A stretch of 64,000 bases of DNA from an uncultured virus (IMG/VR IMGVR_UViG_3300033145_002040) (taxonomy: Duplodnaviria > Heunggongvirae > Uroviricota > Caudoviricetes), in IMG/VR virus record IMGVR_UViG_3300033145_002040; one strand, 5' to 3'. Of this stretch, positions 20,990 to 60,661 are shown piece by piece. The position numbers were made by a program, and so were the translations under genes. A model generated the notes under the pieces. The model worked only from the letters and a program-made list of their open reading frames with translations, ran no database searches and was not told the origin of the DNA. Positions within the stretch are counted from its first letter, which is position 1; the number at the start of each line of letters is the position of its first letter.

Positions 20990-21020
20990 ATAGTAGTATA
21001 CTATATCTATACACACTCCC

Positions 21021-21054
21021 TTTATAAATCTTTCGGTACTACTATAGAGTGGTA
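21021..21054 (-). promoter_or_regulatory. Class A promoter: TACTACT-n4-AGTAGTA palindrome + BRE + TATA
   Basis: + strand TTTATAAATCTTTCGG-TACTACT-ATAG-AGTGGTA. Confidence 0.8.
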
Positions 21055-21072
21055 ATTTATTGGTAGATAAAA

Positions 21073-40774: not shown

Positions 40775-40830
40775 TTTTATTGCCTCCTATTTTATTTAAT
40801 TAATATAAATTTAAAAGTGAATAGTTATTC

Positions 40831-41040
40831 TTAATAACTAACTCCTATTTTATTTAGATTATTAATACCTTTATCTACTATTACTTCTTTGGTATCAACC
40901 TTATCTTTACAAAAAATACCAAATAGCAACATCGTTACCCCAAACCCTAATGCTACAAATTTAAGCTGATTATCCATATTCTCTAATATAATCGCAGCTA
41001 TAAACCCAGTAACTGATAAACTTAAATATGTTATTTCCAT
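40831..41040 (-). CDS. Small membrane protein
   Basis: Two TM; leaderless from the class A promoter. Confidence 0.65.
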   Translation of the reverse strand: MEITYLSLSVTGFIAAIILENMDNQLKFVALGFGVTMLLFGIFCKDKVDTKEVIVDKGINNLNKIGVSY

Positions 41041-41065
41041 CTTATATACTCTATATATACTATCC

Positions 41066-41099
41066 TTTATAAATCTTTTGGTACTACTACGGAGTAGTA
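41066..41099 (-). promoter_or_regulatory. Class A promoter
   Basis: TTTATAAATCTTTTGG-TACTACT-ACGG-AGTAGTA. Confidence 0.8.
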
Positions 41100-41139
41100 G
41101 TTCCGCATTTCTTTGAAATGCTATATTACTTTTAAGTTA

Positions 41140-41340
41140 CTACTTAAAAGTGTTCAACACTTCTTTATCATGTTTTATAGTTAAAATTCCCTTAACATTT
41201 TCCATAACAAAAATTTTAGGTTGTAATTGTTTTACAATTTCAACATATTCCTCAAATAATCTCCCCCTTGGGTCTTTCGGGTCTCTTAATCCAGCTAAAG
41301 AATATGCTTGACATGGAGGACCACCGACAATAACATCACA
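41140..41340 (-). pseudogene. C5-cytosine DNA methyltransferase, second fragment (motifs IV-VI), 3'-truncated
   Basis: CDVIVGGPPCQ...DPRGRLF...MENVKG then stop; later motifs absent. Confidence 0.88.
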
Positions 41341-41445
41341 CCGTTGCATTTAAATTAAACATAGTTATACACCATGTTTTTGCTATTTAATTGCTTTGCA
41401 TCGGACACCATAGGGTTCCGAGAATTGAATCGAAGTAAAGCAACT
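41341..41445 (-). ncRNA. Putative omega-RNA scaffold (3' part) overlapping the tnpB end
   Basis: GTTGC able to pair with terminal GCAAC; hairpins TCGGA...TCCGA and AAACATGGT-GTATA-ACTATGTTT; 5' boundary uncertain. Confidence 0.55.
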
Positions 41446-42488
41446 TTCGCTGACGTATAGTCTGCATTGTCTGAATAACCACAATTCAAACAGCAAAAGT
41501 CCTCTTGCGTTTTTCGATTCTTCTTGTCAACATAGTTACATTCTGGACAAGTTTGGCTATTCCTAAAATTGCTAACAGTCCTGTAAGGAACACGGTTCAC
41601 ATCACAGTTTGCTTTCAATCTGTCATAGGCATAACTAACAGTCCACTTGCTGACAAAGAAACGGACATTTTTACTCAACCGTTTTTTGAGTTTCATATTT
41701 TTATGAATATTAAATAATTTCTCAACAACCACTAAGCTGTATAAGTTGTAGTTTAAGTTTTTGATATTGTAGTCTATAAATTCTTTCAATTCTTCTTTAC
41801 ACCTATACCAAGCATTACTATGTTGTTTTTTTCTTTTAAGTTTGATTAGGAGGTCTTTATATCCTTCTCCAATGGTCTCACGATTAGATGTTGCAATAAA
41901 TTTGTTTATACCAAAGTCCATACCTATTTGTTCTCCAGAATCAATTTCTTTTTTAGGAGGAGTTTGAGTTTCAAAAGTAAACATAATATAATCTTTGTGG
42001 AGAGTAATTGACTTACTCAACTTCCAATTTTTAAATTTATTATAATGTTCATGTTTTTTTAGTGGAATATGTATCTTCATTTTGTCGCCAATACAACCAA
42101 GCGTAACCATTAAATCAAATTCTTTAGTGTTTGGTTTATTTGAAATAGTTGCAATAGTTTCAGACAATATAAGCCTCTTACCATAATGTTTTGGTCTGAT
42201 GTAATTTTGTTTTCTTGTTTTAGCATTAGATTTAGCTGACTGCACTAGACCATACCCTTCAGAAAAAGCATTCTTTATTAGTCGTGCTGATAACCAAGTG
42301 TCAAATGAATGTATATATTCTTTCTTTAGTAAATCATATTTCCTCTGTCGTGGAATTTCTTTTTGATATTTTCCAATGAACAGATTAACAACCCTGGAGT
42401 ATTCCTTAATAACTTTGTCTAACTGACCTTGTTTGTTCTTTGTTATGAACTTCTTGAAATAACATTTAGTGCTTCTTTTAATTTTCAT
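41355..42488 (-). CDS. tnpB: TnpB / Cas12f-like RNA-guided nuclease
   Basis: RuvC-I GMDFG, RuvC-II VVEKL, Zn finger CPEC...CLNC, RuvC-III NADYTSA; catalytic D/E/D intact. Confidence 0.92.
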   Translation of the reverse strand: MKIKRSTKCYFKKFITKNKQGQLDKVIKEYSRVVNLFIGKYQKEIPRQRKYDLLKKEYIHSFDTWLSARLIKNAFSEGYGLVQSAKSNAKTRKQNYIRPKHYGKRLILSETIATISNKPNTKEFDLMVTLGCIGDKMKIHIPLKKHEHYNKFKNWKLSKSITLHKDYIMFTFETQTPPKKEIDSGEQIGMDFGINKFIATSNRETIGEGYKDLLIKLKRKKQHSNAWYRCKEELKEFIDYNIKNLNYNLYSLVVVEKLFNIHKNMKLKKRLSKNVRFFVSKWTVSYAYDRLKANCDVNRVPYRTVSNFRNSQTCPECNYVDKKNRKTQEDFCCLNCGYSDNADYTSAKVALLRFNSRNPMVSDAKQLNSKNMVYNYV

Positions 42489-42490
42489 TT

Positions 42491-43090
42491 TTATCTTTCC
42501 TTTTTGAATCTTGCTGAAACTTGAGTATTAAATTCAGCAGGGTCGTACCAAAAACACCCAATACAACTACCTATATATTCTCTTGGACCAATCCATTGAG
42601 AATTTTTATAACCTAATCTTTTAGCATTAAATCTTATCCCTGTTTTTTTACAATCCTTACAATGTTGTCTCTTTGCATCATTTGCAGTTTTATGTAATGG
42701 TTGAAAATCTTCTTTCTTTTGTTTTTGCGAGAAACCAAAATCATCTTTTCTTCCATCTTTGTGGTCAACTTCAATATATTGCCCTTTAATATTTAATAAT
42801 TTACATGGTAATTTCTGATAAAGGTCTAATATTTCTTTTTTAATCTTGTTATCAAACTTATTCTTTTTATACCCTGTAAGTTGAACCCCTACAATTCTGC
42901 CTTTCTCTTTTATTCTATTAATATTAAAATATCTTCCTAATGGACCATCAGACCTACACCAATCTCCCCCATTAATTGTTCTAAGATTATGTTTTGTTAA
43001 TTTTTCTAAATGAACAATATCCGAGAATCCATTATCATAATTAACATTACAAATCTCACAAAATACCCATCCTTTAGAACCCCTTTTCTT
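42491..43090 (-). pseudogene. NlaIII/IceA1-like HNH restriction endonuclease frame lacking a start codon (not in ORF track)
   Basis: ~199 open codons: NGGDWCRSD, IEVDHKDGRKDD, DFQPLHKTANDAKRQHCKDC, CIGCFWYDP. Confidence 0.85.
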
Positions 43091-43301
43091 TCATATATTC
43101 AATTATTTCATTTTTAACATTGGGGTCGGTAATATCTCCTAAAAAGAATTTTGCTTTTGGATGGTTTTTTTGGAATGTCTTTCCTGCGTGTTCTAAAATA
43201 TCATTACCTACGACAATTTCATAACCAGCCATTTCAAAACCTTGACTTAATCCACCACATCCAGAGAATAAATCTAATACCTTATGTTTATTTTTCATCA
43301 T
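43080..43301 (-). pseudogene. C5-cytosine DNA methyltransferase, N-terminal fragment (motifs I-III)
   Basis: VLDLFSGCGG, GDIT; ends at the insertion junction. Confidence 0.88.
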
Positions 43302-43491
43302 CTTTTTTAACTCCATTTTTCTTTTCCAAATCCCAATAAGCACTTTTGCACTTTGGACAAATTCTTGGCTTATCTTTTAATTCTCCTTCTAATTGTAATA
43401 ATTCAACTCTTGGTATCCATTCATGCCCACATCTCAAACATTTGAAGGCATTAACTACCATCTTAATCTTATACTTCTCTTTAATGTTCAT
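43288..43491 (-). CDS. Small zinc-ribbon protein, copy 1
   Basis: CLRCGHEWIPR...PRICPKCKSAYWD. Confidence 0.8.
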   Translation of the reverse strand: MNIKEKYKIKMVVNAFKCLRCGHEWIPRVELLQLEGELKDKPRICPKCKSAYWDLEKKNGVKKDDEK

Positions 43492-43597
43492 AGTTTATTT
43501 AAGTCTTTCTTCTTTAAGAATTCTTTCTGCCATTCTTTTAGTTTGATTTCCATTGTTTTGTTTAATAAGGAATTTCCTTATTATACCCGTGATTATA

Positions 43598-43682
43598 TCA
43601 GGGTAAGAGGAATCGAACCTCCCTTTGTCGGAGCCCTTTTCTTAACGTCCGCTCCTCGGTTTTCCCAGTTACCTATACCCCG
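43598..43682 (-). ncRNA. tRNA-like element with enlarged 16-nt anticodon loop; identity undetermined
   Basis: Acceptor CGGGGTA/TACCCTG-A; T-arm GGAGG-TTCGATT-CCTCT; D-arm GGT...ACC; GGAGC-n16-GCTCC. Confidence 0.6.
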
Positions 43683-43686
43683 TTAG

Positions 43687-43856
43687 TATAAAATGTGGGC
43701 GTTTAGGTTACCTAATCTTCTCCATCATTGAACAACCCACATTTCTGGCTCTTTGTCCAGTCGTCACCAAAGGCTCTTCCTCCCTTAGTTGATAGGTCTT
43801 TAGCCTAACAATGCAAACGGCAGTAAAATTGCAACTGCGATTAATCTATTTTCGTT
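43687..43856 (-). ncRNA. Unrecognised structured RNA, copy A
   Basis: Shares conserved blocks and covarying stems with 60428-60615. Confidence 0.7.
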
Positions 43857-44034
43857 TGTTTTCTTTTCCGAAGTTTATATTTTCGGACTTCATTATTTCT
43901 ACATTTCAAAAAAACACCTATAACCCCCAAATGTGCAGTTTTCCTTTTTTGAAATTCTTTTAATGGCTTATATTCTTTACATTGATAACATTGCAATTTA
44001 CCATCGACTAGCTTTTTTTTATTTTGTCCTGCCT

Positions 44035-44325
44035 TTATACAATATAAGTCTTCTTTCCCTTTATAGCATTATCCTCAATTCTCTTTTTCAACCAAGCTAA
44101 GAGTTTATTATGATCATAAAAACTCAACCGCTCACCCTCATCAATCACGACGCAACCAATCACAAATTTCCTAGAATTTAGAACCGGATAATAATTCCCC
44201 TTTGTCTTGATCTTATCAAATTCTTTCCGATCCGAATCAGTAATCATCTGAGCCTTAATCTGATCTCCGGATTTTTTAGTTCCATCCCAAACTTCATAAG
44301 TTTCAATATCAAAAGCTATCCACAT
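44035..44325 (-). pseudogene. Truncated DEDD 3'-5' exonuclease N-terminus (PolB-type ExoI)
   Basis: MWIAFDIET...FVIGC...KTYIV then stop where ExoII is expected. Confidence 0.5.
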
Positions 44326-44786
44326 TTTATTAAAATTCCATTTATTTCTTTTGGTGGCTTAACCCCTATTCCAAATAGAACACTTCCAAAACGAGGACTT
44401 GTCTGTTTTCTTTCATTATGCTCATAAGCTGTTCTCCCTTTCAAAATAAAAATCCAATCTGCTCTTTTTGAAATAATCTCTTGCCAAAGCTTACTTTCTA
44501 AATTATCTCCTCGATAAATTCCAATTCCCCTCTTTATTATTTTAAAAAAATGTTTAATCATTTCTTCTGCTTTAGAAAATGGTGGATTAATCCAGCAAAC
44601 ATTATTATCATTATTTAAATTTCTATTTAAAAAATCATCACACCAAAATTCACATTTCTTATTTTCATAAGAAGCACAACAATCTAATCTAAAATTATAT
44701 TGTAAATTCAAAATATCAAATAATTCTTTAGGAGTTTCCCAATCATCTCTCTCACTATTATTCCCTTTTCCATCATTTCCTCCCAT
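44316..44786 (-). CDS. Phage-type Dam-like N6-adenine methyltransferase
   Basis: DDWETP, LDCCAS, WINPPFS. Confidence 0.85.
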   Translation of the reverse strand: MGGNDGKGNNSERDDWETPKELFDILNLQYNFRLDCCASYENKKCEFWCDDFLNRNLNNDNNVCWINPPFSKAEEMIKHFFKIIKRGIGIYRGDNLESKLWQEIISKRADWIFILKGRTAYEHNERKQTSPRFGSVLFGIGVKPPKEINGILIKCG

Positions 44787-44964
44787 TACATAAACCCCGA
44801 CAAAGTATTTTTAATTCTATTGTCTCGCCCCAACTTTCCAATTCTCTCATTCTCAGCCTTCACTCTTTTTCTCATGTAAAATTAGGCAGGATACCCGAGT
44901 CTTTAGCGTGTGGGAGAATCATTTCCTCAATAGAATCCCCACAGATTATTTTATTTTTTATCAT
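44786..44964 (-). pseudogene. Internally deleted beta-class DNA methyltransferase remnant interrupted by the mini-element
   Basis: MIKNKIICGDSIEEM resembles beta-MTase N-termini (cf. MEKNKIYNGDC at 36338). Confidence 0.55.
44876..44922 (+). mobile_element. 47-bp chimeric left-end/right-end mini-element (PATE-like)
   Basis: TCAT|GTAAAATTAGGCAGGATACCCGAGTCTTTAG-CGTGTGGGAGAATCAT; halves match the two ends of the 35488-36384 element. Confidence 0.7.
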
Positions 44965-45124
44965 CTTTTTTAACTCCGTTTTTCTTTTCTAAATCCCAAT
45001 ATGCACTTTTACACTTTGGACAAATTCTTGGCTTATCTTTTAATTCTCCTTCTAACTGTGACAATTCAACTCTAGGTATCCACTTGTGACCACACCTTAA
45101 ACATTCAAAGGCATTAACCACCAT
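44951..45124 (-). CDS. Small zinc-ribbon protein, copy 2 (57 aa, not in ORF track)
   Basis: MVVNAFECLRCGHKWIPR...CPKCKSAYWDLEKKNGVKKDDKK; near-identical to copy 1. Confidence 0.75.
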   Translation of the reverse strand: MVVNAFECLRCGHKWIPRVELSQLEGELKDKPRICPKCKSAYWDLEKKNGVKKDDKK

Positions 45125-45132
45125 CTTAATCT

Positions 45133-45202: not shown

Positions 45203-45841
45203 TTACAGCCCTCTTTCAAGGACACTTGCAATAGCATCTTCAGCAGAACGCTGCGCATATCTAGAAGTTGTTGCTAAATTTGCGTGCCCAAGTAACCGTT
45301 GGACATCGTTAAGTTTAACTCCATTCTTTATTAAATATTGTGTGAAATAATGCCTTAGACAATGAAAATGATATTTGTATCTTGGTCTTCCAGCATCATC
45401 CGTATAAATTACACTATTTATTCCAGCTCTTTTAGAAGCACTTAAAAATGCTTTTGATATAGCTCTTTCTTTTATGTCTATAGGAAAATATTTTAGATGA
45501 TTAGTTTTCAGATGTTTCGGTGTATTGACAACTCTATCTCTAGCACCTTTAGCTTGCCTTATAAATAATTTATGTTCTTTTAAATTTATATCATTAATAT
45601 CAAGCTTAGATATTTCTGACACCCTAAGTCCACTCTCTGCAGCCAATATAAAGCATATATAATGAACAGGTTTATGTACAGCTTTTAATAACTTTAAAAA
45701 TTCATCTTCAGATAAAGCAGTATATATTCTACTCTTTTTTTTGATTTTTGGACTTGATTCAAGAGAGACTAATCTTTTCCCATATTCTTCCGGAGTAATC
45801 AAACCTTCTTCATAAGCTTTTCTTAATTCCTTCCTATTCAT
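45203..45841 (-). CDS. Tyrosine recombinase, catalytic domain only (Xer/integrase-like)
   Basis: GLRVSE, K, HCLRH, LLGHANLATTSRY; no core-binding domain. Confidence 0.92.
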   Translation of the reverse strand: MNRKELRKAYEEGLITPEEYGKRLVSLESSPKIKKKSRIYTALSEDEFLKLLKAVHKPVHYICFILAAESGLRVSEISKLDINDINLKEHKLFIRQAKGARDRVVNTPKHLKTNHLKYFPIDIKERAISKAFLSASKRAGINSVIYTDDAGRPRYKYHFHCLRHYFTQYLIKNGVKLNDVQRLLGHANLATTSRYAQRSAEDAIASVLERGL

Positions 45842-46823: not shown

Positions 46824-46961
46824 ATGATCCTTCCTCTTCCCTCATTCTAAGTTTCCTATAAGGGAAACCTTTATTCCGTTTAATCTTATCCTTCCTCTTG
46901 TTGCGATTTTCAAATTGTGTATCCATTATAGAATAGGTATACAATATTATAGTAGATCTGC

Positions 46962-46995
46962 TTTATAAATCTTTCGGTACTACTATTTAGTAGTA
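46962..46995 (-). promoter_or_regulatory. Class A promoter
   Basis: TTTATAAATCTTTCGG-TACTACT-ATTT-AGTAGTA. Confidence 0.8.
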
Positions 46996-47181
46996 ATTCT
47001 AATCAACCATATAACTATTTTAAAACGTCGTGATTGTGAAAGCCCCACAACATTGGGACAAATAATAATAAATTGTTTTGATTAAGGGTTTATTCTTTAG
47101 TAGCTTCTAATACTGTCTTCAGTTTACTCATCTTTTCCATAAAATAATTTATAATATCAGATGCTGTTTCTAAATCTATTT

Positions 47182-48736: not shown

Positions 48737-48939
48737 TCTCCGCTCCCATAGTACGCACCATATTTATCTTTCCATTTTTTTGCATAATTGTTAAGAATTT
48801 TCTTATATTTTCTTAGCTGTTCTATTTCTCCTGGATGAATGCACTTAACTATCCTTATTGTCTCCTGCATTCTCCTATCTAAGTATATTTTCTCTTCTTC
48901 TATTTTTTTCTCTAAGTTACTTTCTCCCATTTTAATCAT
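48730..48939 (-). CDS. Hypothetical protein
   Basis: Coupled ORF. Confidence 0.55.
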   Translation of the reverse strand: MIKMGESNLEKKIEEEKIYLDRRMQETIRIVKCIHPGEIEQLRKYKKILNNYAKKWKDKYGAYYGSGEW

Positions 48940-50461
48940 AAATCTCGAATCTAAGGAGCCCTCCGAATCCTCCTAAATTTCTAAATTGTACTCCCTCCGG
49001 TGTCTCATCAGTGACAAGATGTACCTCCGATGAAGATGACTCTGCTAATTCCATAAACAGTTTAACTTTTTCTTTAGGTAATGATTTTGAAAGGATTAAT
49101 TTTTCTACTGCCCCTTTTCTCAATCTGTCTTCTACCTCAGCTTCTCCATATGAAACTTTATTAGGATCTTTCCCTAACCTTTCCATAAATAAGTCTATAA
49201 TTATTCTTTGCTTAGTTATTTCTTGCTCCTCTAAATCAGATTTACAAAGTTTTACTAATTCCTCTAATCCCTTCATTCCATCTCCTCCCATATCTTTTAA
49301 TGCTATAACTTTATTCCTAAGTTGAGTTACAAGTTGAGATTGCTTTAAAAATTTATCTTTAGTTGGAGTTGGCCCACCGATGAAAATTCCTTTTAATTTT
49401 TTGTTATCCCAAAATAATCTTTTCATATGTTCTGCTGTTTTCTTATAAAACTCCTTCGCTGTACTATCTCTAACTCTCTCAAATCGCTGAGCGGAGTTAT
49501 GAACAATTAACCCATTTGCTATAAAATTATGGGTATCTGTTTCTATATCTATAGTATCTGATATTCCTACTGATTCTATTTTAGATATTTTTACAGGTAT
49601 AATATTTGATGGATATATATTATCATTATATATGCTGTTAGGAATAACCAAGTAATCATTTTCTTTTATCTCCGATAACAACCTCTCATGTATGATATTA
49701 TCTGCTACAACAAAGAAAGTATGGTCCAATGAAGCCCTTATATTAATCTTAGGATGATAAGTTGTAATCTCAAAAAGTTCTTTTTTATTCTTCCACTTAG
49801 ATACTACCTTCGTATTCTCCATCTTCCCACTATCAAAATTATAACCTATAATGGTAGATAATTCATCTACCTCATTAATAGGTATGATCTCCCCGTTATC
49901 TTTCATCACTAACGTATCCGTAGATAAACATTGCCCACCCGTCTTGTGCTGTCCAGGGACTCCAGAATAAATGTGCTTTAATAGTTTAATACTATTCCCA
50001 TCTAAAATTCCTATTGATGCCTCATTCAATTCTATTATAAGAAGCCCGTACACCTCATCCGATTCTAACATATCAATCAGAGGGTCTAATAAAAATCTTT
50101 GATCACAACGATAGGTTCTTACATTTAATATCTTAGGGGGCTCTATCGCCCAAACTTCCAATGATTCTCTCCCATCAGTAGTTGTAATTAAACCGGAGAA
50201 TACCGCTAATCCGTTTTTTGGCGTTCTACCTATTTCTTTCAGTTTTCTAACAGCTAAATCTAACGCATTAATAACATTTTTTCTTGTTGTGCTAGATTTA
50301 ATATTATTTGCAGTTCCCTTCTCATCTTCTAGTTGCTTTTTCATTTGCACCAGAGAAGCCCCAGCCGGTATTAATACTGTAATCAATTCAGTATGTTTAC
50401 CATGATAACTTCCAAGCTCTTCAACGAAAGCCTCTAATTCATATTTTTGTAATTCATCCAT
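48932..50461 (-). CDS. prf1: Archaeal peptide chain release factor aRF1 containing a mini-intein
   Basis: TELIT, NIKS, YRCDQRF, GGQ|...|SAQRF, GGFGGLLRF. Confidence 0.93.
   Translation of the reverse strand: MDELQKYELEAFVEELGSYHGKHTELITVLIPAGASLVQMKKQLEDEKGTANNIKSSTTRKNVINALDLAVRKLKEIGRTPKNGLAVFSGLITTTDGRESLEVWAIEPPKILNVRTYRCDQRFLLDPLIDMLESDEVYGLLIIELNEASIGILDGNSIKLLKHIYSGVPGQHKTGGQCLSTDTLVMKDNGEIIPINEVDELSTIIGYNFDSGKMENTKVVSKWKNKKELFEITTYHPKINIRASLDHTFFVVADNIIHERLLSEIKENDYLVIPNSIYNDNIYPSNIIPVKISKIESVGISDTIDIETDTHNFIANGLIVHNSAQRFERVRDSTAKEFYKKTAEHMKRLFWDNKKLKGIFIGGPTPTKDKFLKQSQLVTQLRNKVIALKDMGGDGMKGLEELVKLCKSDLEEQEITKQRIIIDLFMERLGKDPNKVSYGEAEVEDRLRKGAVEKLILSKSLPKEKVKLFMELAESSSSEVHLVTDETPEGVQFRNLGGFGGLLRFEIYD
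49496..49930 (-). other. 145-aa mini-intein (no homing endonuclease) inserted directly after GGQ
   Basis: CLSTDTLV (block A), ASLDHTFF (block B), TIDIE...HNFIANGLIVHN|S (blocks F/G). Confidence 0.93.
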
Positions 50462-50654: not shown

Positions 50655-50728
50655 TGGGGTTGCCCAGATTTGAACTAGGACTAGAGCGTTCCAGACGCCC
50701 GGTCATAACCAGATTAGACTACAACCCC
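50655..50728 (-). tRNA. tRNA-Pro(TGG), atypical C33/A37
   Basis: Acceptor GGGGTTG/CAACCCC; GGGCG-TCTGGAA-CGCTC; T-loop TTCAAAT. Confidence 0.8.
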
Positions 50729-50731
50729 TTA

Positions 50732-50802
50732 TGCGAGATAAGGGTAACTCACCCTTGTTTCTTGGTTGGAAGCCAAGCGTTCTGCTATTAAACTAATCTC
50801 AC
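50732..50802 (-). tRNA. tRNA-Gly(TCC) with non-canonical D- and T-loops
   Basis: GTGAGAT/ATCTCGC; CTTGG-CTTCCAA-CCAAG; T-loop TGAGTTA; no GG in D-loop. Confidence 0.75.
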
Positions 50803-50831
50803 TTACAACTTTGAAAAAGCTGAATAAACAA

Positions 50832-50906
50832 TAGCAGGAGATGGATTCGAACCACCGGTATCTAACGCATGAGTCCAGTGCATTAACCTAACTGTGCTAC
50901 CCCGCT
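50832..50906 (-). tRNA. tRNA-Met(CAT), A1:U72 initiator-like acceptor, weak anticodon stem
   Basis: AGCGGGG/TCCTGCT; loop CTCATGC; T-arm GGTGG-TTCGAAT-CCATC. Confidence 0.72.
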
Positions 50907-51193
50907 ATTAAAATTGACAAACAACCCTAGAAGTAATTACTAATTTAATCTATATCTCCAGTTTCATCATTACTAACCTCAGCAATATATTCTTCAGCCG
51001 TATTGATGTCATTCACAATAGCAGCTTGAGTTTTTTCGGCAGTCATCACTTCCCCTTCATTCGCAATAATTTTTTCATTTTTCATTTTAATTTAAACCTC
51101 CTTATAATAATGTTTTAACATTATGAATAAAATTATATCCCCCAGCACCTACTTAAAGGTGAAGGGAATATTTAATAATAACAAATAACAAGC

Positions 51194-60133: not shown

Positions 60134-60427
60134 CTTTTTGTTTTGTTATTCATCTTCTCCTTTTTCTTTGTCTGATATTATAATGTCAGCAGGGGAAGAG
60201 AATGGCAGGTGAGACGATGAATCCACCACTTTTGTTATAACGCCGTCCCTTTTTGTTTGGGCATCTTCCTTTTTCCCTTGCACATCATCATGAGGTTTCC
60301 CTCCTTTAGGTAGCTGACTATGATTTGATTGTTTTTCTTCCATTTTTTTTGTTATTACTATCTTACTTTTCCCCATTGTTTCCTTCTGTTGACATATTAT
60401 CTCCGTTAGTATAAAATCACTTGTGAT

Positions 60428-60615
60428 TATAAAATGTGGGCTTACGTGTTTCTTTGCTGTTAGCTTAGCAATTTAATGCTGTCCCTTTTCACCCACATTA
60501 CCAGTCTTTCAACCAGTTCCGAATTATCGGTGTCAGCCCTTGCCGGACGTCCTACTGTCAAGTGGGACAATGCAAACGGTGGGAAAATTGCACCCACGAT
60601 TAATCTGTTTTCATT
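60428..60615 (-). ncRNA. Unrecognised structured RNA, copy B, downstream of its own class A promoter
   Basis: Covarying stems relative to copy A; ends in AATGTGGG...CCCACATT followed by a short U-run. Confidence 0.72.
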
Positions 60616-60661
60616 CACAACCTTTTCCCCAATTTTATTCTCTATTGGTAATATTATAGGA

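Follow-up and report, generated by a model that had tools for sequence, protein, structure and literature searches.

A cytosine C5 methyltransferase (MTase) gene in the window (the whole stretch of 64,000 nucleotides analysed here) is interrupted by a segment that carries a tnpB gene and the reading frame of a restriction-like nuclease. This arrangement raises the question of whether the segment is an RNA-guided homing unit that disables methyltransferases while carrying a restriction enzyme as its cargo, as a preliminary description of the locus had proposed, or whether another history accounts for it. We regard it as probable that the segment is a composite IS607-family derivative, non-autonomous and lying within a dead C5 MTase gene, and that its left part is a captured piece of a nuclease gene of the ICEA type. 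All features of the locus lie on the minus strand; they are listed below, followed by a neighbouring repeat:

43077..43343, minus strand: 5′ fragment of the C5 MTase gene, motifs I–III (PF00145 positions 2–58, E 3.5e-13)
43079..43083, minus strand: left junction GGGGT, the G-run of the target (predicted TAM plus crossover core), placed by alignment to viral contig L026
42494..43081, minus strand: 5′-truncated gene of an ICEA/NlaIII-family HNH nuclease (PF05315 positions 5–208 of 218, E 3.9e-34)
41358..42488, minus strand: full-length tnpB gene, 377 aa (PF07282)
41341..41518, minus strand: predicted omega (right-end) RNA scaffold, which overlaps tnpB at its 3′ end, from covariation
41340..41347, minus strand: right-end terminus GCAACGG+T (GG crossover core), where the homology of relatives stops
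41320..41339, minus strand: predicted guide flank GTGATGTTATTGTCGGTGGT, from its position relative to the right end and the published IS607 reRNA layout
41143..41340 (frame from 41349), minus strand: middle fragment of the C5 MTase gene, motifs IV–VI (PF00145 positions 62–124 of 324)
41065..41102, strand not given: copy of the intergenic repeat family D2 (hairpin + TTTATAAAG)

An intact homologue of the interrupted enzyme (406 aa) is encoded on the related viral contig L026. In the protein alignment to the window, its residues 3–83 correspond to 43319–43080 (73% identity) and its residues 84–145 to 41340–41155 (94% identity); the two fragments meet precisely at ...KG|CDVIVGG, with zero residues missing between them. 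A second empty allele was found on a metagenome contig (record 16 of run X3), which joins 41340 to 43129, the 49 letters between them being those of 43080–43128. Removal of the 1,739-bp insert (43079..41341) gives ...aag ggg|tgt gat..., in frame, so that excision regenerates the empty allele and nothing is duplicated except a shared GGT, within which the boundary is ambiguous. The anatomy of the insert, its boundaries and the empty alleles are established in this way, and the GG-bounded insert of the preliminary description, with an excision that restores the frame, is borne out by both alleles. When viral contigs were searched with a degenerate pattern for other alleles of this target site, only the L026 contig was recovered; no other full empty allele is available.

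The MTase gene is damaged in another way that had been missed: it is also cut at its 3′ side, after about residue 145 of 406. Its 5′ fragment probably starts at the ATG at 43301 and ends at the TAA at 43076–43074, three codons beyond the junction. The middle fragment obtains an in-frame ATG from the element end at 41349, departs from the L026 enzyme past ...TIKHDKE and stops at 41142–41140. Residues 146–406 of the L026 enzyme have no match anywhere in the 64-kb window; of the full motif set (ten motifs, with the target-recognition domain and motifs VIII–X), only the parts in positions 2–58 and 62–124 of 324 are present. Judging from its coding sequence, the gene is a pseudogene that lacks its 3′ two-thirds. 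A split yet working MTase was considered and rejected, since the remainder of the gene is absent from the window. Repeat D2 occurs in 10 copies across the window, one of them just beyond the truncated MTase gene.

The insert consists of two unrelated parts, 1.15 kb with tnpB and the scaffold on the right and 0.59 kb with the ICEA/NlaIII-type gene on the left. Its right end reads ...AAATGCAACGG(T), and the conserved end ...GCAACGGT terminates exactly at the MTase junction. This is where the preliminary description had placed it, and the DNA homology of five relatives (L055, L057, L059, L070 and L082) ends at the same position, 41340. When 20 loci were scanned downstream of the stop codon, ...ACGGT was present in 19, and alignment placed it in 3 more; at 20 distinct insertion sites other than that of the window, the flanks that follow it are unrelated to one another. 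In every copy of the right end, GG is followed by T. At the left junction, the last GGT doubles as the Gly-12 codon of the ICEA frame, and the ICEA homology in metagenome contigs stops at 43081. The left junctions of canonical relatives read xGGGT (AGGGT in L058 and GGGGT in L060). Nothing at 43079 resembles the left ends of these two, GGGT|T(C/T)(G/A)CAACAGC..., and the left 588 bp of the insert, where subterminal recombinase-binding repeats would be expected, are ICEA coding sequence. No terminal inverted repeat was found among the repeats of 41100–43400, and no second copy of the element exists in the window. In agreement with the preliminary description, no transposase is carried: the insert ORFs gave no recombinase match, and the TnpA_S HMM had no hit in 41341–43079. 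An IStron (group I intron) was rejected because the left part is protein-coding and no Rfam match was obtained: no group I intron hit appeared at E up to 1 in 40800–44100, and only tRNAs reach the gathering score in the whole window.

The tnpB gene is intact, as had been claimed. Its profile matches solved Cas12f and TnpB chains across the RuvC/zinc-finger part. RuvC D191 and E256 and zinc-finger C314 and C317 are invariant in 20 aligned sequences, and D343, C333 and C336 are nearly so; the cysteines form two CxxC pairs (C314/C317 and C333/C336). By these residues, the nuclease looks active. In total, 89 TnpB homologues were found and 82 loci were fetched, 44 of which contained at least 700 nt of upstream sequence. 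A serine-recombinase TnpA_S lies upstream on the same strand in 12 of the 82 loci, and 70 show none, many of these contigs being short. Among 17 upstream ORFs of relatives sent to Pfam, 9 matched resolvase, and 5 of these also matched a MerR-type HTH. The 17 TnpB records in GenBank phages were all below 60% identity and below 80% coverage.

IS607 elements are defined by GG ends, integration at GG and the lack of terminal inverted repeats and target duplication, as stated in three sources (10.1101/2023.11.20.567912, PMC10711439 and PMC13565253). The window insert has ...CAACGG(T) at its right end, AAGGGG(T) as its target and GGGGT at its left junction. The family is established: with TnpA_S upstream in 12 of the 82 relatives, the window tnpB belongs to an IS607-type clade, as proposed earlier. 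Since no TnpA occurs in 41341–43079, the window copy falls short of a complete IS607 element and is a non-autonomous derivative.

The closest relatives define what this clade keeps together. The TnpB of L055 is 93% identical to that of the window over all 377 aa; a further TnpB homologue, P0002, is 79% identical. Among near-identical tnpB copies (91–94% DNA identity), the homology starts at most 5 nt before the ATG; in L055 and L062 it begins at 42493/42494. The ICEA piece consequently lies outside the conserved unit. These modules sit behind four different, unrelated genes (the upstream genes in L055, L062 and L076 are other than ICEA) and have no GG at their left edge, so that GG recombination does not explain this arrangement. 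The RHH-tnpB variants L063, L068 and L074 likewise showed no GGGT at the left edge. Two tRNA-flanked copies (L087 and L100) were too tangled to provide clean empty sites.

Covariation across 21 loci supports a predicted scaffold of four helices and 23 pairs, 13 of them with compensatory changes. Three helices lie at 41518–41513/41434–41429, 41492–41485/41475–41468 and 41421–41415/41406–41401; the 3′ hairpin appears in the single-sequence fold only. Paired cells account for 96.3% as compared with 29–48% in the slid control, and double-change cells number 88 as compared with 8–26. The covariation score is 0.572, against 0.225 for shuffled alignments (0 of 500 shuffles reach it) and 0.05–0.13 for slid ones, and the MFE z-score is −3.99. 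Among the 24 public runs listed, no RNA run holding the stretch was found.

The predicted guide flank codes for (C)DVIVGG, immediately before MTase motif IV. The guide proposed earlier was correct to within one base; the correction concerns the T after GG, which no copy lacks. The predicted target reads GGGGT and the element's own end ACGGT. This predicted TAM and guide are consistent with the published rules for IS607 TnpB, and the G-rich TAM suggested in the preliminary description fits the published TGGG/GGG as well as the left junctions (xGGGT) seen in L058 and L060. No second guide target with up to 3 mismatches exists in the window. The L026 empty site reads ATGGTTGTGATGTTATAGTTGG; because its G-run is shifted by one base and there are differences at two guide positions, this allele would probably escape cleavage. 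Wherever a TnpB element has inserted, its guide is directed at the corresponding empty site. The guide against the MTase is thus an automatic result of inserting there and no sign of anti-methyltransferase design.

The nuclease frame noticed earlier is present, but it lacks a start codon, which had escaped attention. It is open from 43090, after the TGA at 43093–43091, to the TAA at 42493–42491, which lies 2 nt ahead of the tnpB ATG. The homologues are about 207 aa long and start with M-x10-KGSKGW; by comparison with 14 homologues, the window frame lacks about 11 N-terminal codons and any ATG, GTG or TTG start. As the piece lacks a start codon, it is probably not expressed. An alternative genetic code that would open the frame upstream was rejected, because the upstream sequence is the MTase gene in another frame and the homology starts at 43081. 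No solved structure matches the ICEA family profile. Relatives occur on 23 viral contigs, and GenBank phages gave no ICEA match. CATG is mildly under-represented in the window (0.66 of expectation). Contigs from 4 of the 24 listed runs (X1, X2, X3 and X5) contain only relatives at 80–95% likeness; those with ICEA relatives are unlike the window past 42482, where a diverged tnpB may follow. A joint from 42496 to 43098 in X1 was disregarded as unreliable, being weak and having a side of 21 letters.

The occurrence of the nuclease and tnpB together was examined from both sides. ICEA was found in none of the 82 TnpB loci, and TnpB of the window's clade in none of the 103 ICEA loci; on the contigs of the closest ICEA homologues (P0090–P0099, 70–86% identical), the pair may exist. 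Since the pair was found nowhere else, the nuclease is not a conserved cargo, and among these loci the pair is a one-off. The pairing of TnpB with a restriction enzyme is unmentioned in the available part of one review (PMC13565253), a single source, and it could be published elsewhere.

Among the other histories, the best surviving one, although unlikely, assumes two events, in which a free-standing homing gene of the ICEA-type HNH kind entered the MTase gene first and a tnpB module was added at its 3′ edge afterwards. Homing endonucleases are commonly of the HNH kind, the viral contigs carrying ICEA relatives suit this history, and the ICEA-type and tnpB-type homologies overlap in 11–13 nt at 42482–42494. 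It is opposed by the ICEA piece itself, which begins inside its own coding sequence and is incapable of self-expression. It also requires the right end of tnpB to land exactly on the old ICEA/MTase junction. Moreover, both outer borders are GGT and the GGGGT target bases were neither lost nor added, which fits one recombinase event.

It is considerably less likely that the insert is an evolved RNA-guided homing unit specialised against cytosine methyltransferases, with the restriction nuclease as its working cargo. Such a unit would account for an ICEA frame that stays open for 199 codons in 31% GC DNA and retains all invariant columns of 15 aligned homologues, for the operon-like spacing before tnpB, and for a guide adjoining motif IV. 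The missing start and N-terminal codons, the absence of the pair from the 82 and 103 loci and the near-identical tnpB copies behind other genes are at variance with it, and the right flanks of the 20 other insertions are mutually unrelated. A cognate methylase is also wanting: a methylase Pfam match was found on a neighbouring ORF in 5 of 11 genomic or viral ICEA loci (3 below the Pfam cut-off; among the methylase-like neighbours, those of L135, L136 and L141 are upstream and that of L142 is convergent, and the upstream ORF of L138 is unmatched), whereas the window ICEA piece adjoins only the broken C5 MTase gene and tnpB.

Expression of ICEA fused to the N-terminal 86 residues of the MTase through a +1 slip on GGG-U is scarcely credible: the ICEA frame is indeed +1 relative to the MTase and the tRNA-Gly would enter it from GGG to GGU three codons before the MTase stop, but there is no known stimulatory signal, the A site has no rare or stop codon, and the geometry simply follows from the GGT crossover. 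An assembly chimera is just as improbable, for although the stretch is a single assembled contig (one contig of 76,503 bp bears the identical TnpB) and no public run has it (best word share 0.10 among the 24 runs listed), the shared sequence at each of the three joins is only 3–13 nt, not enough to lead an assembly astray, nothing separates the MTase flanks in either of the two independent empty alleles, and the right join is the family's conserved end.

Returning to the composite IS607-family derivative, we infer the following for its route of insertion, expression and cleavage. The GGT on both sides and the GGGGT site would be the signature of a GG crossover by a serine-recombinase TnpA. Acting in trans, TnpA may have used the true right end together with a cryptic GG(T) in an unrelated restriction-nuclease gene as the left end, so that the captured ICEA piece begins inside codon 12. 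Recombination of this kind would carry 588 bp of foreign coding DNA into GGGGT, an IS607-type gene capture. This cryptic-left-site recombination is a conjecture, because neither TnpA nor a left end is present and excision of the CboIStron requires both ends (bioRxiv 10.1101/2023.11.20.567912). The donor arrangement, a full ICEA gene followed by a window-type tnpB, was not found among the 82 TnpB and 103 ICEA loci. Alternatively, the insert could have arrived by TnpB-driven homing from an allele already occupied. Transcription through tnpB would yield a guide RNA reading ...ACGG(U) and then GUGAUGUUAUUGUCGG; the loaded TnpB would cut uninterrupted MTase alleles having GGGGT and a matching GTGATGTTATTGTCGG, and repair from the occupied copy would spread the insert.

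The four copies that are 91–94% identical and stand behind four unrelated genes look like tightly coupled downstream cistrons. We put forward, with considerable doubt, that in this clade the module of tnpB, guide RNA and right end may need no left end in order to move or be captured. Candidate routes would be recombination between two right ends, recombination between a right end and a pseudo-site, and homing-linked gene conversion. If true, left-end-free capture would be a route by which a tnpB module becomes attached to new operons.

The answer to the opening question is accordingly that selfish DNA has behaved here in its usual way, and that the insert is no weapon devised against methylases. 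In the preliminary description, the insert, its family, its ends and its guide and TAM have held up; the restriction enzyme as cargo and the specialisation against methyltransferases have not, the former being 5′-truncated and outside the conserved unit, and the guide against the MTase simply following from insertion into that gene, which is also 3′-truncated. The methylase-killing unit fails in the comparison of relatives; the nuclease is a truncated passenger, a single occurrence. The locus is nevertheless a clean natural example in which a tnpB insertion, its empty site, a conserved right end and a covarying scaffold can all be read together. The replicon looks archaeal, and the hosts from which the clade is known are uncultured and probably archaeal. 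The published IS607 rules (a GG crossover and a G-rich TAM one base off the own end) are extended to this distant clade, with the invariant T after GG as a variation.

The nearest known systems are the CboIStron of Clostridium botulinum, whose CboTnpB has the TAM TGGG and a scaffold ending in UCGG with the −3 G discriminated (bioRxiv 10.1101/2023.11.20.567912), and ISXfa1 of Xylella fastidiosa, for which GGG is depleted and a fixed right-flanking nucleotide belongs to the scaffold (PMC10711439). As in both, the scaffold overlaps the 3′ end of tnpB and terminates in ...CGG, the crossover is at GG without target duplication, and the relatives of the window element carry a MerR-HTH/resolvase TnpA. 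As in the CboIStron, a single position distinguishes the G-rich target from the end of the element itself (TGGG/TCGG there, GGGGT/ACGGT here). Unlike these systems, the window insert has no TnpA, left end or group I intron, a foreign gene fragment replaces tnpA, the clade has the extra invariant T, and the replicon looks archaeal.

The TnpB family associated with Y1 transposases resembles what is predicted for the window element in taking its guide from the flank beyond the right end and in the cutting of the empty site, with repair re-installing the element. That family relies on a Y1 transposase, passes through single-stranded DNA intermediates and has TA-rich TAMs, whereas the relatives of the window element carry serine recombinases and its site is G-rich. 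The ICEA/NlaIII-type restriction endonucleases (PF05315) are matched over the full-length domain and in the invariant residues; unlike them, the window gene has neither its first ~11 codons and start nor an adjacent methylase. Finally, solo tnpB, without TnpA, is the majority state of TnpB in genomes, and the window tnpB with its right end likewise persists without a transposase. It differs from solo tnpB in general in that its empty site is known, and therefore the boundaries of the insert and its predicted target can be stated exactly.

The C5 cytosine methyltransferase (MTase) gene is split by an insert carrying an ICEA/NlaIII-type nuclease frame and tnpB. The features concerned, and one further gene of the same window, are listed below.

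Features of the split MTase locus and of a release factor gene elsewhere in the window
43301/43343..43077, minus strand: MTase 5′ fragment (PF00145 profile positions 2–58)
43090..42494, minus strand: open frame of the ICEA/NlaIII family (PF05315, E 3.9e-34)
42488..41358, minus strand: tnpB, 377 aa (PF07282)
from 41340, stop at 41142–41140, minus strand: MTase continuation (PF00145 positions 62–124)
48935–50461, minus strand: eRF1-type (archaeal/eukaryotic) release factor with an intein splicing domain at approximately residues 185–322 (Pfam)

A TAA stop and two bases lie between the ICEA frame and tnpB, and 14 further bases follow tnpB, terminating in ...AAATGCAACGG. Two exact empty alleles were found by the search that the preliminary description had proposed, and every item of its observation of the split gene was borne out. 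One allele is in L026, a viral contig in which a zinc-ribbon gene is likewise followed by this MTase, here intact (406 aa): its residues 3–83 correspond to 43319–43080 and residues 84–145 to 41340–41155, with zero residues lost or gained, and the DNA alignments concur with this protein-level split. The other is a 725-nt contig from the metagenome run X3, in which 41340 is joined to 43129 with 49 letters between them, the exact length of 43080–43128. Since both alleles are contiguous, the insert corresponds to 43079..41341 (1,739 bp), and its borders can slide inside the common GGT. A second truncation, which had been overlooked, follows approximately residue 145 of the MTase; the target-recognition domain and motifs VIII–X were not found anywhere in the window. 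The MTase is a pseudogene, with or without the insert.

The insert consists of two modules. For the tnpB module, 82 loci were compared (80 metagenome loci kept from 177 relatives, and two viral-contig loci). The closest copies (L055, L057, L062, and L076; 92–94% protein identity and about 91% DNA identity) have in common with the window only the DNA from 42493/42494 to 41340, a span opening 5 nt ahead of the ATG of tnpB and finishing with ...GCAACGGT. A different gene lies upstream of this span in each of them: an MCM helicase operon in L062, a small ORF akin to one in the relative L072 in the case of L055, and an unknown 245-aa ORF, then a hairpin, in L076. The proposed assignment to the IS607 family is supported by the relatives: a recombinase HMM detected TnpA, the serine-recombinase transposase, upstream of tnpB on the same strand in 12 of the 82 loci, only 44 of which provide at least 700 nt of upstream sequence. 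Nine of these TnpAs are resolvases in Pfam, five of them also with a MerR-type HTH match, and this combination is the IS607 architecture, according to PMC13565253. Among 20 TnpB sequences, D191 and E256 of the RuvC domain never vary, D343 hardly does, and both CxxC pairs are conserved. The right end recognized earlier is likewise conserved: ...(A/G)ACGGT was found in all copies where it could be located (19 of the 20 loci scanned beyond the stop codon, plus three via alignment), with 20 distinct flanks, and the base 3′ of its T varies freely.

The end of tnpB overlaps a predicted guide-RNA scaffold, about 178 nt long (41518–41341). Four helices are predicted 5′ of the right end among 21 sequences: 96.3% of the cells are paired, as against 29–48% for slid partners, and both-side changes occur in 88 cells, as against 8–26 for slid partners and a mean of 30 for shuffled ones. 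The observed covariation score was reached by none of 500 shuffles, and the window's own 180 nt gave a folding z of −3.99.

Other arrangements recur among the relatives. A gene for a small ribbon-helix-helix protein replaces the recombinase immediately upstream of tnpB in L063–L068, L074, L087, and L100; these loci have a common TTGACA-type promoter, and none has GGGT at its left homology edge. TnpA and tnpB are repeatedly accompanied by two small ORFs of no known family, located between them or alongside (L060 1348–1710, L072 950–1720, and L055 2–223); these ORFs, one of 114–121 aa ending in ...DYKL(N/S)(F/H)PTKI and another of about 142 aa including ...NPxIKKL(F/L)D(N/D)YF..., and may be accessory genes of this clade's elements. 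Element copies also abut tRNA genes (L100 2075–2151; L087 3683–3782 and 5283–5310): in L100, the right end ...AACGGT provides the 5′ acceptor bases of tRNA-Asp, and in L087, a second ...GCAACGGT end lies just 5′ of tRNA-Lys, with a tRNA 3′ fragment past the tnpB right end.

The other module had been regarded as a restriction nuclease cargo, and this view did not survive. The frame contains no ATG, GTG, or TTG start, a point missed earlier, and is 5′-truncated: all 14 ICEA homologues (approximately 205–270 aa) start 8–29 residues further upstream. The closest of them (86% identity) starts M-x10-KGSKGWVF; the window's similarity runs only from GSKGWVF on, and the three residues ahead of it are the MTase gene in another reading frame. 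The nuclease–tnpB pair, suggested as a thing to seek elsewhere, was absent: ICEA matched in none of the 82 TnpB loci, and the HMM of this TnpB clade matched in none of 103 ICEA loci (23 viral and 80 kept of 111 genomic, with 3–4 kb of flank each), whose identity to the window ICEA does not exceed 64%. In genomic settings, ICEA resembles any conventional restriction gene. A methylase-like ORF adjoins it in 5 of 11 loci hand-picked from the 103, the neighbours being checked in Pfam; L141 has an N6/N4 methylase neighbour, L142 a convergent C5 methylase and, in a frame that overlaps ICEA, a further weak match, and L135 and L136 small ORFs with weak, sub-threshold adenine methylase matches. The upstream ORF of L138 had no Pfam match. 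The element is a non-autonomous IS607-family tnpB/guide-RNA module plus a captured gene fragment, residing in a dead gene.

As for the origin of this composite, both outer borders are GGT, the left one being the Gly-12 codon of ICEA, and the site is GGGGT with no target bases lost. This accords with the suggested GG crossover: IS607 elements move as double-stranded circles with crossover between GG dinucleotides, as described in bioRxiv 10.1101/2023.11.20.567912 and PMC10711439. A single serine-recombinase event could have used the true right end on one side and, on the other, a cryptic GG(T) within an adjacent ICEA gene, the TnpA acting from elsewhere (in trans); in a variant, two right ends would recombine. 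Two points count against this proposal: the published excision requires both ends (bioRxiv 10.1101/2023.11.20.567912), and a donor of the composite was not found. At the inner join, 11–13 nt (42482–42494) are common to the ICEA-type and tnpB-type relatives, which suggests an earlier microhomology join there. A two-step history, ICEA first and tnpB later, is possible, but demands coincident borders. The very short sequence shared at the joins makes an assembly chimera unlikely. It is puzzling that left-end-less copies of the module lie directly behind unrelated genes.

An intergenic repeat (CTTTATAAATCTTTCGGTACTACT...AGTAGTA) occupies 10 window sites (e.g., 21020–21057, 41065–41102, and 46961–46998); on the coding strand it is a hairpin and then TTTATAAAG, resembling a terminator combined with a promoter of the archaeal TATA type. 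One of the copies lies just past the MTase stop, at the truncation point. The zinc-ribbon gene is duplicated (43287–43469 and 44950–45132; DNA 90% identical), one copy being 5′ of the split C5 methylase, the second 3′ of a Dam-type methylase gene (44319–44786). The zinc-ribbon and methylase pair, the sole part of L026 common to the window, suggests a small mobile cassette. The window (GC 31.5%) also encodes an STT3-type oligosaccharyltransferase with glycosylation genes, two radical-SAM/SPASM proteins, N6/N4 and Dam-type methylases, a tyrosine integrase, and tRNAs; the intein-interrupted eRF1-type gene adjoins a tRNA gene cluster (50655–50907). From the gene content and the TTTATAAAG-type repeat before genes, we infer that the replicon is probably an archaeal chromosome or archaeal large mobile element. 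GGCC and GATC are strongly rarer than expected window-wide (observed/expected 0.37 and 0.46) and CATG mildly so (0.66), a bias that may reflect earlier contact with restriction systems recognizing these sequences. Two paralogous non-coding stretches (43560–43900 and 60320–60660, + coordinates) have common hairpins with compensatory changes, namely AATGTGGG...CCCACATT with differing loops, and CGG-CAGT-AAAATTGCA-ACTG-CG versus CGG-TGGG-AAAATTGCA-CCCA-CG; they had no Rfam match and may be an uncharacterized small RNA or a recombination site. A tRNA-like 3′ half at 43596–43680 (minus strand; T-loop GGTTCGATTCC and an acceptor-like end), called by neither ARAGORN nor Rfam and located 1.5 kb from the tyrosine integrase gene (45206–45841), could be an attachment-site remnant. 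A 1,208-aa ORF opens, at 2–1156, with a 57-nt (19-codon) unit repeated in tandem at least 16 times; the Pfam match there to YL1_C is probably a low-complexity artefact.

The preliminary description had interpreted the insert as an RNA-guided homing unit that disables a methyltransferase. The family, the GG crossover, the right end, and the predicted guide and G-rich TAM (target-adjacent motif) stand; the nuclease cargo and any design against methylases do not. The guide is whatever adjoins the right end, so that a match to the disrupted gene is shared by all insertions of this type. The target is AAGGGGT and the element's own end AACGGT, and the two canonical relatives whose left ends could be delimited by comparison show GGGT at the junction (CCAGGGT/TCGCAAC... 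and ATAGGGGT/TTACAAC..., the slash marking the end). The guide sequence is unique within the window; the L026 allele departs from the window in its G-run and at two positions of the guide, and would probably not be a substrate for that reason. In bioRxiv 10.1101/2023.11.20.567912, the element of Clostridium botulinum inserts at TGGG, the TAM that its TnpB requires, and its scaffold ends in ...UCGG, discrimination at the −3 G sparing its own TCGG end. For ISXfa1, PMC10711439 describes depletion of GGG, a fixed right-flanking nucleotide that belongs to the scaffold, and an reRNA of about 150 nt. This published logic and the invariant T lead to a predicted guide GUGAUGUUAUUGUCGG... and a predicted TAM of xGGGT; the guide sequence proposed earlier is retained except for its first T, which is excluded as invariant in all copies. 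The window element follows the target logic of the published IS607 TnpBs, offset by one invariant T, and its predicted scaffold of about 178 nt is comparable to the ISXfa1 reRNA.
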